A stretch of DNA of 4,860 nucleotides from IMG/VR virus record IMGVR_UViG_2690316267_000015. One strand, 5' to 3'. The position numbers and the translations under genes were made by a program. Under the pieces are notes generated by a model, which was given only the letters and a program-made list of their open reading frames with translations, had not been told where the DNA came from and made no database searches. How positions within the stretch are numbered: position 1 is the stretch's first letter; every line of letters starts with the position of its first letter. Of this stretch, positions 1-4,860 are shown one piece after another. Source of the DNA: a virus (lineage: Duplodnaviria; Heunggongvirae; Uroviricota; Caudoviricetes).

Positions 1-44
1 TATAATAAACTTACTTTTTTATCATTTTTCCACTTTAACAACAT
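1..44 (-). CDS. Possible 5' end of a divergently transcribed gene running off the left edge (reads MLLKWKNDKKVSLL...)
   Basis: ATG at 44..42 on the - strand, preceded by GTGGAG (Shine-Dalgarno-like) 4 nt upstream. The frame is open to the window edge. Only ~14 codons are visible, so this is weak. Confidence 0.2.
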   Translation of the reverse strand, partial: MLLKWKNDKKVSLL

Positions 45-316
45 TTTGCTCCACTTTTCCACGACCAAACAACTTGAAATCTGGTTAAAATAACACGCAA
101 CACTATTCTTCTTCCTTGAGTCCGCCCGGAACTCGAAAAACAAACCGAGTTAAAGCCATTTTTCACAAAATCGATTTTGGGTCTCACCAAAGTTACGGGG
201 TTGCATACGCATTCGTTTATTTTCGAACGTGTACATACAAATATGCACAAAAATAATCAAAATTATTTTCTGAGATGCATTATGATATGAAAACCAATTT
301 CGTATAGAGTCTCACT

Positions 317-907
317 ATGTCTCGAATTTTTGCTTACTGTCGGATATCAACGCTGGATCAGACCACCGAAAATCAACGCCGGGAAATCGAAAGTGCAGGT
401 TTTAAAATCAAACCTCAGCAAATAATCGAAGAACACATTAGCGGCTCAGCAGCAACCAGTGAGCGTCCTGGTTTTAACCGGTTGCTTGCTCGCCTGAAAT
501 GTGGTGATCAATTGATTGTGACAAAACTGGATCGCCTTGGTTGTAATGCAATGGATATCAGGAAAACAGTGGAACAACTGACCGAAACAGGTATCAGAGT
601 GCATTGCTTAGCATTGGGGGGCATTGACCTGACCAGTCCAACAGGAAAAATGATGATGCACGTAATTTCAGCAGTCGCTGAATTTGAACGAGACCTTTTA
701 CTTGAACGCACTCATTCCGGGATAGTAAGAGCCCGCGGCGCAGGGAAACGTTTTGGTCGACCACCTGTGTTAAATGAAGAACAGAAACAGGTGGTATTCG
801 AACGAATTAAGTCAGGTGTAAGTATAAGTGCCATTGCCCGGGAATTCAAAACCTCGCGGCAAACCATTTTAAGAGCCAAAGCAAAACTTCAGACACCTGA
901 CATATAA
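317..907 (+). CDS. pinQ: Serine-recombinase DNA invertase, Pin/Hin/Gin/Cin family (196 aa)
   Basis: The 196-aa ORF begins [15 protein letters not shown], with the catalytic serine in the conserved R-I-S-T-x-D-Q motif. It has a resolvase-type catalytic domain and a C-terminal helix-turn-helix ([17 protein letters not shown]). I recognise it as the PinQ/PinR type of E. coli cryptic prophages. The symbol pinQ rather than pinR is chosen from the neighbouring genes. Confidence 0.95.
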
Positions 908-1004
908 AAAATAATCTCGGTGTGAGATGCTTTACGTCTTCCAAGCCCCCTTCCTTGCCGTAAATGGAGAGATACATCTAATTATAGAATTTATATGTTT
1001 TACC

Positions 1005-1580
1005 CTACGGCAGTGCTGGCCATTCAATATCCGGTGCAGTTGATGTATCAACACGGTTCAGCAACACCCGATACTTTTTCCAGGCTTCCAGCAACAAGGT
1101 TTCTTCCTCCGTTGCGATCTCCAGATCCACAGCATCCTGAAGCGGCGCTATATGCTCACTGGCTATCTGCATCAGGCTGTTTTTTGTTTCTTCCGCCTCC
1201 CGGATCCGGAACAGTTTTTCTGCTTCCGTATCCTTCACCCAGGCTGTGCCGTTCCACTTCTGATATTCCCCTCCCGGCGATAACCAGGTAACATTTTCCG
1301 GTAACGGACCGAGTTCAGAAATAAATAACGCGTCGCCGGAAGCCACGTCATAAACCGTTTTACCCCGATGATCTTCAACGAGATGCCACGATGCCTCATC
1401 ACTGTTGAAAACAGCCACGAAGCCTGCCGGAATATCTGGCGGTGCAATATCGGTACTGTTTGCTGGCAGACCTGTATGAGGCGGAATATATGCGTCACCT
1501 TCACCAATAAATTCATTAGTTCCGGCCAGCAGATTATAAATTTTTATGGTCCGTGCTTGTTCACTCATTCTGAATGCCAT
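1005..1580 (-). CDS. tfaQ: Tail fibre assembly protein (191 aa)
   Basis: The 191-aa ORF ([24 protein letters not shown]...) is recognised as the lambdoid Tfa family. GAGG lies about 9 nt upstream of the ATG. The start overlaps the stop of the upstream stf fragment as TAATG (1578-1582), a classic stf-tfa translational coupling. Confidence 0.92.
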
Positions 1581-1888
1581 TATGCAAGCCTCACAATATA
1601 GTTAAATGCGATGTTTTTGACGGTGTTTTCCGCGTTACCAGCAGCGTTAACGGTGATGGTATGTCCATGTGAACCAATCGCAACGGAGTGCGTATGAGCA
1701 CCAATACCGACAGTATGTGCGTGTGCACCTGCGCTTGCAGCAGTACCCGATACAGAGTGCGTATGAGCGCCTGCAGAAGAAGTGTTAACACTGTATTTAG
1801 AATAATCAGGTGATCCACTTCCCGGAGCACCACTGGAACCACCTGAAACAAATGTCATCGAATGGGTATGTGCACCGGCTGTCCCCAT
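1580..1888 (-). pseudogene. stfQ: Side tail fibre protein, C-terminal fragment only (102 codons from an internal ATG)
   Basis: The translation contains five GAHTHS-like His-box repeats ([35 protein letters not shown]) and ends ...[26 protein letters not shown], typical of lambdoid Stf and T4 gp37-like fibre tips. Upstream of the ATG at 1888 this frame is out-of-frame J sequence, so the N-terminal about 90 percent of a normal Stf is absent. Confidence 0.8.
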
Positions 1889-3222
1889 GCATTTACCGCC
1901 CGGACTGTCAGCCTGTAATTTCCCAGCGCCAGCTGCGTGAAGCGATATGTGGTTTCCGTCGTCCGGGCCGTGCTGACCAACCGCTCACTGCCGTCGTCCG
2001 CTGCCACGGTCAGGCGAAGCATAAAGCTCACCCCCTTCACCACCTTCGGCGTGTCCCAGCGCGCCAGCACCTGGTATTCCCCGCTGTCTGCGGTGACTTC
2101 TGCGGTCAGGTGCTGAACTGCTGGCGGCGTGACACCATTCACCGTGCCGCTCTGGTCACCGTCAAAGTGCGCCCCGTTATCCACGATGGCTTCTTTCTCC
2201 GGTACATGCTGCACGGCAGTGATGGCATACGTACCGTCATCGTTCTCACGGATACTCACACAGCGGAACAGGCGCTGACGCAGCGTCGGCAGCTTCAGCC
2301 CCCACACGCTGTACTCGGCAACGCCGTCAGGAACCCGGCTCACTTTCACCTTCACGCCGTCGGTGACGGACTGGACCTCCACGCTCACCGGATTACCCTG
2401 CCCGTCAACCAGGCTTATCAGCGTGGTGCCGGAGGATGGCAGCGTGATTTCACGGTCGAGCGTCAGTGTCCGCGTCTGGCTGTTCACCGCCAGCACGCGC
2501 CCGCCGATGCTGATCCCCGCATAGTCATCATCACAGATTTCAATGACATCACCTGGTACATGGCGAAGCCCTTCGGCACCCACGCTGAAGTCCACGGTCT
2601 GCGTTTCCAGCAGTTCCGTTTTAATCAGCCACAGCCCGGCTCGGTGCGCCTGCCCCCGCCTGGTACAGCCAAAGGCATCCATCTTCGTGACGTTACGACC
2701 GTAACGGGCAATGGCCTGCGTGTCCTCCACAAGCTCTGTCGCCGTCTCCCAGCCGTTATCCGGGTCAATCCAGTTCACCTCAACGGCATTATGGCGGTCC
2801 TTCAGGGCGCTGAAGCTGTAGCGGAACGGCGCGCCATCATCCGGCATCACCACATTACTGCGGTTATAGGTCCACACCTTATCTGATGGTCGGTCCTGCA
2901 CGAACGTCAGCGTCTGCCCGTTCCATACCGGCATACAGCGCATCGCCGAGCAGAAATCACTGAGAACATCCCACGCCTTACGCTGTGTGGTCAGCCAGGC
3001 ATTACAGGTGATGCGCGGCTCCGTGCCGCCAAAACCGTCCGGCACCGACTGGTCGCAACACTGGCCGATGACATACAGCGCCCATTTATCCACATCTGCC
3101 GCACCAAGACGTTTACCCATGCCGTAGCGCGGGTGGCTGGAGATCTGTCTCGCTGGCCTGCCGCAGTTCTTCAACTTCCCGGCGCAGCTTTTCGTTCTCA
3201 ATTTCAGCATCCCTTTCGGCAT
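1855..3222 (-). pseudogene. Lambda J-like host specificity (central tail fibre) protein, internal fragment
   Basis: From roughly 3141 down to 1879 the translation (...YGMGKRLGAADVDKWALYVIGQCCDQ...GQTLTFVQDRPSDKVWTYNRSNVVMPDDGAPFRYSFSALKDRHNAVEVNWIDPDNGWETATELVEDTQAIARYGRNVTKMDAFGC...RAVNAWGQ) matches the middle third of lambda gpJ as I recall it. The ATG at 3222 lies inside Nu1-derived DNA and has no convincing Shine-Dalgarno sequence. The J C-terminal receptor-binding region and N-terminal region are missing. Confidence 0.8.
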
Positions 3223-3370
3223 ACCATTTTATGACGGCGGCAGAATCATAAAGCACCTCATTACCCTTGCCACCGCCTCGCAGAACGGGCATTCCCTGTT
3301 CCTGCCAGTTCTGAATGGTACGGATACTCGCACCGAAAATGTCAGCCAGCTGCTTTTTGTTGACTTCCAT
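3113..3370 (-). pseudogene. nohQ: Terminase small subunit Nu1 homolog, N-terminal DNA-binding fragment (Nu1 residues about 1-79, then out-of-frame tail)
   Basis: MEVNKKQLADIFGASIRTIQNWQEQGMPVLRGGGKGNEVLYDSAAVIKWYAERDAEIENEKLRREVEELRQASE is near-identical to the lambda gpNu1 N-terminus as I recall it. Homology stops near 3134; the remaining 6 codons (PALRHG) are not Nu1. The ATG sits about 189 bp from cosN, as in lambda. Confidence 0.85.
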
Positions 3371-3390
3371 TGTTCATTCCACGGACAAAA

Positions 3391-3595
3391 ACAGAGAAAG
3401 GAAACGACAAAGGCCAAAAAGCCCGCTTTCAGCACCTGTCGTTTCCTTTCTTTTCAGGGGGTATTTTAAATAAAAACATTAAGTTACGACGAAGAAGAAC
3501 GGAAACACCTTAAACCGGAAAATTTTCATAAATAGCGAAAACCCGCGAGGTCGCCGCCCCGTAACCTGTCGGATCACCGGAAAGGACCCGTAAAG
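3391..3595 (-). other. cos: Lambda-type cohesive end site (cos): cosB with R1, I1, R2, R3, then cosN, then the cosQ-side flank
   Basis: On the - strand the sequence reads GGGCGGCGACCTCGCGGGTTTTCGCTATTTATGAAAATTTTCCGGTTTAAGG..., which is the lambda left end as I recall it. R-site-like 16-mers lie at 3391-3406 (R1, - orientation), 3440-3455 (CGTTTCCTTTCTTTTC, R2, + orientation) and 3492-3507 (R3, - orientation, one mismatch to lambda). An AT-rich IHF-like stretch lies at 3461-3485. The right-end flank CGTAACCTGTCGGATCACCGGAAAGGACCCG (3560-3590) matches the lambda right end. Confidence 0.85.
3548..3559. other. cosN: cosN 12-nt cohesive-end sequence (AGGTCGCCGCCC on +, GGGCGGCGACCT on -)
   Basis: Exact match to the lambda 12-nt 5' overhang sequence, with lambda-identical flanks on both sides. 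Confidence 0.85.
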
Positions 3596-3758
3596 TGATA
3601 ATGATTATCATCTACATATCACAACGTGCGTGGAGGCCATCAAACCACGTCAAATAATCAATTATGACGCAGGTATCGTATTAATTGATCTGCATCAACT
3701 TAACGTAAAAACAACTTCAGACAATACAAATCAGCGACACTGAATACGGGGCAACCTC

Positions 3759-3992
3759 ATGTCTACGAAGAACAGAACCCGCAGAACAACAACCCGCAAC
3801 ATCCGCTTTCCTAACCAAATGATTGAACAAATTAACATCGCTCTTGAGCAAAAAGGGTCCGGGAATTTCTCAGCCTGGGTCATTGAAGCCTGCCGCCGGA
3901 GACTGTGCTCAGAAAAAAGAGTTTCTTCTGAAGCAAACAAAGAAAAGAGTGACATTACTGAATTGCTCAGAAAACAGGTCAGACCAGATTGA
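3759..3992 (+). CDS. ynfO: Small basic protein with predicted ribbon-helix-helix DNA-binding fold (77 aa), ynfO-like
   Basis: 77-aa ORF with GGGG 8 nt upstream of the ATG. It has a basic N-terminal arm (KNRTRRTTTRN), then RNIRFP (beta strand, compare Arc FNLRWP), NQMIEQINIALEQKG (helix A ending in Gly), SGNFS turn and AWVIEACRRRL (helix B). This is the Arc/Mnt/CopG pattern. A charged C-terminal tail of about 30 aa follows. Confidence 0.85.
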   Translation: MSTKNRTRRTTTRNIRFPNQMIEQINIALEQKGSGNFSAWVIEACRRRLCSEKRVSSEANKEKSDITELLRKQVRPD

Positions 3993-4049
3993 AGCAATTT
4001 AGATAATCGTGCAGACTACGCCCCCTCATATCACATGGAAGGTTTATCT

Positions 4050-4460
4050 ATGGATCAGGTAGTCATTTTTAAACAAATATTTGATAAAGTTCGAAACGAT
4101 TTAAACTATCAATGGTTTTATTCTGAGCTAAAACATCACAATGTCTCACATTACATTTACTATTTAGCCACAGAGAATGTTCATATTGTATTAAAAAATG
4201 ATAATACAGTGTTATTAAAGGGCCTAAAAAACATTGTGTCTGTCAAATTTTCAAAGGATAGGCATCTTATAGAAACGACCTCTAATAAGCTGAAATCCAG
4301 AGAGATCACATTTCAGGAATACAGAAGAAACCTTGCTAAAGCAGGAGTTTTTCGGTGGGTTACAAATATCCACGAACAAAAAAGATATTACTATACCTTT
4401 GATAATTCATTACTATTTACTGAAAGCATCCAGAAAACTACACAGATCTTACCACGCTAA
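4050..4460 (+). CDS. ydfO: ydfO/ybcV-family protein (DUF1398 as I recall), 136 aa; an alternative in-frame start at 4035 would give 141 aa
   Basis: The ORF track gives 4035..4460. The second ATG at 4050 has a better Shine-Dalgarno sequence (GGAAGG at 4037-4042, 7-nt spacer) and yields [14 protein letters not shown]..., matching the ydfO-type start I recall. The gene is very AT-rich, far below the J fragment in GC. Confidence 0.85.
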
Positions 4461-4468
4461 ACCATAAC

Positions 4469-4497
4469 GTCCGGCTTCTCTCACTCCTGAGCCGGAC
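4469..4497. terminator. Perfect 8-bp GC-rich hairpin (GTCCGGCT, 13-nt loop, AGCCGGAC) between convergent ydfO and the gns-like gene; candidate terminator
   Basis: The stem arms are exact reverse complements and the hairpin lies 9 nt after the ydfO stop. The T-tract after it on the + strand is weak (TGCATTGGTTT), so intrinsic terminator activity is uncertain. Confidence 0.45.
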
Positions 4498-4611: not shown

Positions 4612-4794
4612 TCAGATTAAATTAATCTTGACATCATAGCTTTCAAGACCCGTCATTTTTTCCCGTGCGGTAAACTGAATACTGGTAACTTCTTTCCCGG
4701 TCTTTTTCTTAAGTTCAATAATTTTTTTTGTTATATATTCAGAAATATCTGCTTCTGCTTTTGTTTTTAAGGAAGGTGCGAATAAGCAGGTCAT
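4612..4794 (-). CDS. gnsB: Gns-family protein (GnsA/GnsB-like), 60 aa from the ATG at 4794; the frame stays open upstream to the window edge
   Basis: The C-terminal two thirds (ISEYITKKIIELKKKTGKEVTSIQFTAREKMTGLESYDVKINLI) closely resemble GnsA/GnsB as I recall them (…KNTGKEVSEIRFTAREKMTGLESYDVKIKIM). GGGAAG lies just upstream of the ATG at 4794. The ORF-track version (4612..4860) begins at a GTG at the window edge, so the true start is uncertain. Confidence 0.75.
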   Translation of the reverse strand: MTCLFAPSLKTKAEADISEYITKKIIELKKKTGKEVTSIQFTAREKMTGLESYDVKINLI

Positions 4795-4860
4795 TTCTTC
4801 CCAAGCTGACTCGCTGATTAAAATTTCTCGGATCTGGGCCGATTTTTTTCCCGCAAACAC

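Follow-up and report, generated by a model that had tools for sequence, protein, structure and literature searches.

Can a defective prophage that has kept a cos site but lost its terminase and head genes still be packaged by another phage? This question is raised by the 4,860-nucleotide stretch of viral DNA analysed here (the window; IMG/VR record IMGVR_UViG_2690316267_000015). A sequence-only reading had described an apparently intact lambda-type cos site at positions 3391-3610 and had proposed that a superinfecting phage with a lambda-specificity terminase could cut and package the element in trans, which would provide a route for hitch-hiking or transduction. The comparisons reported below favour, with a probability that we put at about 70%, a more modest role, in which the site is a sequence-intact cos of lambda packaging specificity that persists as a passive cis-acting relic and does not bring about transfer of the element itself.

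The Qin prophage and its deletions

When the window was compared with E. coli chromosomes, the best match to its full 4860 bp was NZ_CP144928.1, with 99.9% identity. The prophage in this chromosome spans ~25.7 kb, with a truncated ydfJ at one border and int/xis and rspB at the opposite border. Its genes are arranged in the order ydfK, pinQ, tfaQ, a tail-fibre remnant, a J remnant, a terminase small-subunit remnant, ynfO and ydfO, and beyond ydfO lie a gnsB-like gene, cspI, lysis genes, a Q-like ydfT and relBE. The chromosomal site (ydfJ'-rspB) and the gene order of the 'cryptic prophage Qin' of K-12 MG1655 are the same as those of the window's prophage. The window's element is the defective lambdoid prophage Qin of E. 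coli. Both the integrase and the excisionase are annotated as intact in the Qin of NZ_CP144928.1 (L001 43097-44663); the intQ of K-12 is a pseudogene.

Pfam matches in the window were to Resolvase at 317-907 (pinQ), Caudo_TAP at 1005-1580 (tfaQ), Phage-tail_3 and Ig_J in the ORF at 1855-3222 (the J fragment), DUF3950 at 3759-3992 on the plus strand (ynfO, which is also annotated) and DUF1398 at 4035-4460 (ydfO). Using blastn against the lambda genome (NC_001416), window 1015-1729 was aligned to lambda 22538-21824 (tfa and the end of stf, 93.8% identity), 1875-3136 to lambda 17608-16347 (internal J, minus strand, 92.6%), 3134-3559 to lambda 427-1 (the start of Nu1, cosB and cosN, minus strand, 98.1%), 3560-3921 to lambda 48502-48141 (the lambda right end with cosQ, overlapping the start of ynfO, minus strand, 98.1%) and 3976-4479 to lambda 47527-47023 (the ydfO region, 84%).

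The pinQ gene is apparently intact, with Pfam matches to Resolvase and HTH_7. Inverted repeats of 14 bp or more that might be PinQ crossover sites were not found around tfaQ and the tail-fibre remnant (window 1-2100), and PinQ appears to be an invertase that is left without its former invertible segment. At the other end, the final ~90 bases of the window match in full a single genome, in which ISKpn26 (IS5-like) is located just past the window end (region compared: window 4612-4860; L001 24612-25898). The gnsB-like ORF adjoins ISKpn26 and encodes 82 aa in the window, and is thereby longer than the 174-nt gnsB of K-12.

The terminase small-subunit remnant, a truncated Nu1 of the nohA type (noh stands for 'Nu one homolog'), is located at 3113..3370 on the minus strand. 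It encodes gpNu1 residues 1-79 followed by six unrelated residues and a stop, in agreement with the earlier placement of the truncation at about codon 79. BLASTP showed that residues 1-79, which hold the winged-HTH DNA-binding domain, are those of lambda gpNu1 except for A75T. The Pfam Phage_Nu1 match covers positions 1-81 of 164 (E 1.4e-48), and the annotation of NZ_CP144928.1 lists the remnant as a pseudogene of the terminase small subunit. At the deletion junction (3134..3136, a 3-bp overlap of the blastn segments), lambda bp 427 in Nu1 is joined to lambda bp 16347 in J. The head genes are indeed absent, as had been proposed: lambda 428-16346 is missing. This segment extends from the remainder of Nu1 through genes A to I (A, W, B, every head gene and most tail genes) into the start of J.

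Three Qin deletion states were compared (window 1875-3136/3134-3370; L004 3000-9600; L003 3300-7600). The window's Qin retains lambda 1-427 and 16347-17608, the Qin of NCTC9040 retains lambda 1-703, 2177-3470 and 16136-17608, and the Qin of K-12 retains lambda 1-719, joined to stf. The J junction at lambda 17608 is common to the window and NCTC9040, and judging by these breakpoints the window's Qin seems to have arisen from an NCTC9040-like form by further deletion. All three states have kept cos and no less than 427 bp of Nu1, with the gpNu1 DNA-binding domain. This retention could be due to the location of cos where the decaying left arm ends, or to selection. Qin is a clear illustration of a prophage that decays step by step while cos is spared.

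Subsites and alleles of the retained cos

Aligned with lambda, the minus strand of window 3391-3610 is a full lambda-specificity cos, comprising cosQ, cosN, I2, R3, I1, R2 and R1. The 7-bp packaging-termination element cosQ, GGGTCCT, is located at 3583..3589 on the minus strand and is identical to that of lambda, whose coordinates we take to be 48473-48479 (Wieczorek and Feiss 2001). It sits within the block gcgggtcctttccgg, which is invariant in 11/11 aligned cos regions, and the 200 bp upstream of cosN, including this block, are the same as in lambda without a difference. The 7-bp cosQ is known to be highly conserved (PMC4669245). The sole change among 21 sequences was observed in a prophage of E. 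coli strain 103605 (L016), in which cosQ is GGATCCT instead of GGGTCCT. This substitution might harm packaging termination, and it indicates that the constraint on cosQ is not absolute.

The 12-nt cohesive-end site cosN, GGGCGGCGACCT, is located at 3548..3559 on the minus strand as an exact match, and is the one match in the window when up to one mismatch is allowed (0.01 expected by chance). Its flanks are those of lambda, with the flanking CG pairs conserved, and the nicks are expected between 3560 and 3559 on the top strand and between 3548 and 3547 on the bottom strand. cosN is identical in 21/21 aligned phage and prophage cos sites, and in phage DE3 these 12 bases carry the cos site annotation. 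The bent spacer between cosN and cosB, I2 (lambda bp ~18-49), is located at 3511..3542 on the minus strand and is identical to lambda. Across lambda bp 1-52 the window has no insertion, deletion or substitution, and the cosN-to-R3 spacing is unaltered. Both the sequence of I2 and the spacing between cosN and cosB are essential (PMC4856287).

The R-site core GTTTCCNTTCT was found exactly three times in the window, compared to 0.01 expected, at 3395-3405 (R1, minus strand), 3441-3451 (R2, plus strand) and 3496-3506 (R3, minus strand), which is the lambda arrangement with R2 inverted. R3 (AGGTGTTTCCGTTCTT; lambda bp 50-65), the critical site for TerS (gpNu1), occupies 3495..3510 on the minus strand and differs from lambda by C53T. 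R2 (CTGTCGTTTCCTTTCT), the TerS site inverted relative to R3 and R1, occupies 3436..3451 on the plus strand; it is an exact 16-mer and is invariant in 21/21 aligned sequences. R1 (TTGTCGTTTCCTTTCT), an accessory TerS site, occupies 3395..3410 on the minus strand, and its 16-mer has one mismatch, at the first base. The mismatch count against lambda is zero for cosN and R2 and one each for R3 and R1. Searching with the full R 16-mer at up to three mismatches recovers R1 and R2 only, and R3 was located by the core pattern. Between R3 and R2 lies the AT-rich IHF-bending segment I1 (3452..3494, minus strand), with near-consensus IHF matches at 3469-3481 and 3474-3486. The IHF consensus WATCAANNNNTTR at up to two mismatches has 56 matches in the AT-rich window compared to 53.5 expected, which is not above chance, and I1 was therefore assigned by homology to the I1 of lambda and by its identity to that of several deposited phages.

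Collectively, these results bear out the anatomy given by the sequence-only reading, namely a 12-nt cosN with lambda-identical flanks, three R sites in the lambda arrangement, an AT-rich segment between R3 and R2, and the lambda right-end flank. The direction of packaging that it proposed, toward decreasing coordinates, is also the one predicted here, because cosB and Nu1 are located on that side. Given this direction, the J fragment (lambda 16347-17608) would be the first DNA to enter a head.

The cos region is 98% identical to that of phage lambda. Between cosN and the end of cosB there are five single-base differences from reference lambda: bp 53 (C>T), inside the R3 16-mer; bp 73 (A>G) and bp 103 (T>C), in or around I1; bp 138 (A>G), between R2 and R1; and bp 151 (C>T), the first base of R1. 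Reference lambda (NC_001416; L013) also has an extra G at bp 138/139, between R2 and R1, that is missing from 20/20 other aligned cos regions, including that of the lambda-derived DE3. All five variant alleles, the R1 first-base allele among them, co-occur in phages 2H10 and phiSTEC1575-Stx2k, and over cosN-cosB the window is 1 nt apart from 2H10, at a position where it has the lambda allele. T53 in R3 is common to phages 2H10, phiSTEC1575-Stx2k, Lambda_4B5, PhiR29_1 and Stx1_112808, and the G at bp 73 and the C at bp 103 are the majority alleles among the sampled phages and prophages. The segment of R3 contacted by gpNu1 was mapped by NMR to bp 55-63, and the functional base pairs are 56, 58 and 59 (PMC9026076, PMC4669245). 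These positions are all unchanged in the window, and C53T is located outside them, near the predicted minor-groove wing contact. From its occurrence in deposited phage genomes, C53T is presumably neutral. By sequence, the window's lambda-specificity cos has no recognisable defect.

These data bear on whether the site is an inert fossil that is left uncut in vivo, either because of C53T in R3 and the R1 changes or because a single copy is outcompeted by phage DNA. C53T alters a position occupied by C in each of the three lambda R sites, in the R site that is most critical (PMC9026076); the nested deletions of Qin show continuing decay, and the cosQ substitution in the strain 103605 copy shows that constraint is not absolute. 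However, the same alleles are carried by five deposited phage genomes, the R3 contact positions are intact, and recombinant junctions cluster at the cos of the sister prophage DLP12, which is consistent with activity (PMC3945230). We therefore regard an inert fossil as unlikely.

The cos alleles are mosaic (window 3391-3620 compared with L002-L023). The window combines a lambda-type cosQ side with a 2H10-type cosB side, and other strains have other combinations of cosQ and cosB alleles that switch at or near cosN. The cosB alleles of K-12 Qin, A54, G144 and G176, are common to BL21 DLP12. Their recurrence in BL21 DLP12 and in other strains ruled out that these three changes are private decay mutations of K-12 Qin. 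On this allele comparison, the mosaic pattern suggests recombination or gene conversion at cos.

Predicted behaviour of the cos relic

Since Qin is without terminase, portal and head genes, its cos would be idle unless a phage with a lambda-specificity terminase grows in the cell. Following the established lambda pathway, on which the steps given here are modelled (PMC4856287, PMC4669245), gpNu1 dimers and IHF would assemble on R3-I1-R2, with R1 as an accessory, and gpA would nick cosN at the two positions given above. Terminase would then remain on the cosB end (Complex I) and feed DNA into a prohead toward decreasing coordinates. From the state of its subsites, the Qin cos would probably be cut in trans by such a terminase. 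The predicted outcome is a double-strand break in the chromosome, more recombination around cos between Qin and the infecting lambdoid phage and, at most, rare, tail-less one-ended particles with host DNA (ydfI, marRAB, lsr), because a headful from the Qin cos includes no other cos, and the larger part of Qin is located beyond the cut. The mosaic cos alleles are consistent with such recombination. The simplest account of why cos is still intact is that it is small, that it recombines now and then with incoming lambdoid phages, and that it borders the decaying left arm.

One headful from the Qin cos would comprise ydfI, dcp, dgcZ, eamA, marRAB, sad, glsB and the lsr operon, and would extend roughly to hipBA. 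A filamentous-phage-like cluster is located ~49-55 kb downstream of cos, past a lambda headful (NZ_CP144928.1 2272510-2278347; L024 25765-31602), with genes for a replication protein II/X, a major coat protein, an attachment protein, a Zot-domain protein and a secretin.

Could the retained cos instead allow a helper phage to transfer the defective prophage, or markers adjacent to it, as for a cosmid, a PICI or a satellite? The sequence-intact cos, the apparently intact int and xis at the far end of Qin in NZ_CP144928.1, and the movement of natural cos-bearing islands by lambda (PMC6092414) speak for such transfer. Against it, the bulk of Qin is on the unpackaged side of cos: ~4.5 kb of the ~25.7-kb Qin of NZ_CP144928.1 is on the packaged side, and the cosQ side holds ynfO, ydfO, the lysis genes, Q, relBE and int/xis. 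A passive-prophage or cosmid-like segment would require a second cos in the same orientation ~37-51 kb downstream, and neither a second cosN (up to one mismatch) nor a cosQ-cosN signature was found within 56.8 kb downstream of cos in NZ_CP144928.1. Cos terminases require a second cos for the terminal cut, and protruding uncut DNA blocks tail joining (PMC6687093). Lambda transfer of natural cos-bearing islands depends on their excision and replication into concatemers (PMC6092414), and the annotation of NZ_CP144928.1 shows neither a replication initiator nor a primase within the ~25.7-kb Qin. An excised Qin monomer of ~25.7 kb would be ~53% of lambda length and a dimer ~106%. A 25.7-kb monomer is too small for a lambda head, and monomer and dimer fall beyond the packaging range or at its limit.

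The gene content also differs from that of a PICI. Like a PICI, Qin has its own int/xis, annotated as intact, but no rpp is located beside a non-phage cosB; the cosB is of the phage type, its neighbour is the truncated Nu1, and the annotation lists no other PICI features. A PICI or satellite identity for Qin was rejected on this gene content. Overall, helper-dependent transfer appears quite improbable, and hitch-hiking by Qin is not credible because of the ~4.5-kb packaged side, the lack of a second cos and the lack of an annotated replication module. Of the trans-packaging route first proposed, the intact cos and the plausibility of its cutting stand, but the hitch-hiking of the element does not.

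A broader proposal, that the intact cos sites of Qin/DLP12-type prophages are functional launch pads or selected recombination hubs or decoys, is very unlikely; if launch pads were real, one-way packaging of ydfI, marRAB, lsr and hipBA while a lambdoid phage grows in the cell would be a cos-phage counterpart of lateral transduction. Least probable, and barely tenable, is a selected function of cos together with the gpNu1 DNA-binding domain, as a terminase decoy, an abortive-infection trigger or a recombination hub from which Qin genes escape into new phages: cosQ, cosN, I2, the R3 core and R2 show little or no variation among the sampled defective and intact copies, a conservation that could be caused by selection rather than neutrality, 3/3 Qin deletion states keep cos and at least 427 bp of Nu1 with its DNA-binding domain, and the module is in ~85% of E. 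coli genomes, but a single chromosomal copy would be a negligible decoy against hundreds of phage genomes, the 85-aa Nu1 fragment is a product predicted from sequence, and recent common ancestry with gene conversion from infecting phages, as seen in the mosaic alleles, explains the conservation equally well.

Prevalence and relation to known systems

The 220-bp cos segment was found in 4592/5426 complete E. coli genomes (~85%), at 8772 places and with a median of two per genome. An intact cos in Qin is thus not unusual. The wider Nu1'-cos-ynfO-ydfO module has matches in 4700 genomes, in which it is annotated as nohA-ynfO-ydfO (Qin type) or nohD-ylcI-ybcV (DLP12 type). Fisher and Feiss are said to have reported in Virology in 1980 that lambda cos mutants revert via recombination with a defective K-12 prophage. 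The cos of DLP12 has been described as part of a 3.5-kb lambda-like patch, centred on cos, where recombination with lambda takes place (PMC545071), and as a hotspot of recombination with lambda, with 10/19 junctions adjoining cos (PMC3945230). To prevent recombination, the Feiss laboratory avoids hosts with defective prophage material and uses E. coli C for plating, as it has very little defective lambda-like prophage and no lambda cosN (PMC4669245). Our literature search found explicit accounts of the DLP12 cos and none naming a Qin cos. A cos relic of the Qin/DLP12 class is already known and ordinary, and is present in most E. coli genomes. Strains with the Qin cos are a concern for lambda genetics and for cos-based packaging, where recombination and rescue of cos or lysis modules are possible. 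The practical value is otherwise small, and a new question would arise only if one-ended packaging moved host genes at a useful frequency.

Among known systems, the particles predicted here are closest to the one-ended 'docL' particles of unexcised lambda prophages, which arise by cos-initiated one-way packaging and are defective and rare. They were reportedly described by Little and Gottesman in 1971 and by Sternberg and Weisberg in 1975. No demonstration of docL-type particles for Qin was found in the literature. Passive prophages, chromosomal segments with a cos site at either end, are packaged by a helper terminase acting in trans: as proposed for Qin, the terminase cuts a cos in the chromosome, and packaging proceeds one way from cosB (PMC4669245). 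They need a second cos at a genome-length distance, whereas Qin has none within 56.8 kb downstream. PICIs such as EcCICFT073 and SaPIbov5 are, like Qin, non-autonomous chromosomal elements with a helper-type cosN that need a helper terminase. P4 is a further cos-packaged satellite. PICIs excise, form concatemers and redirect TerS via their own cosB and Rpp (PMC6092414, PMC9026076). In contrast, the cosB of Qin is that of the phage itself, genes for replication or for redirecting TerS are not annotated, and Qin is mostly on the wrong side of cos.

The relic that we favour, intact in sequence and passive, is most similar to cos sites of lambda and of the K-12 prophages. With lambda it shares the subsites and their order, orientation and spacing, and cosQ, cosN, I2, R2 and the R3 contact bases are identical. 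Lambda differs by the five cosB bases and the extra G, and the Qin cos is located in a chromosome without its cognate terminase, portal and head genes. The DLP12 of K-12 (nohD), whose cos has been described (PMC545071, PMC3945230), shares the Nu1'-cos-ynfO/ylcI-ydfO/ybcV module with the window. The Qin of K-12 (nohA) is the same element at the same chromosomal site, and differs from the window's copy in its deletion (lambda 1-719 joined to stf, compared to lambda 1-427 joined to the J fragment) and in its cosB, which carries A54, G144 and G176 in K-12 and is of the 2H10 type in the window.
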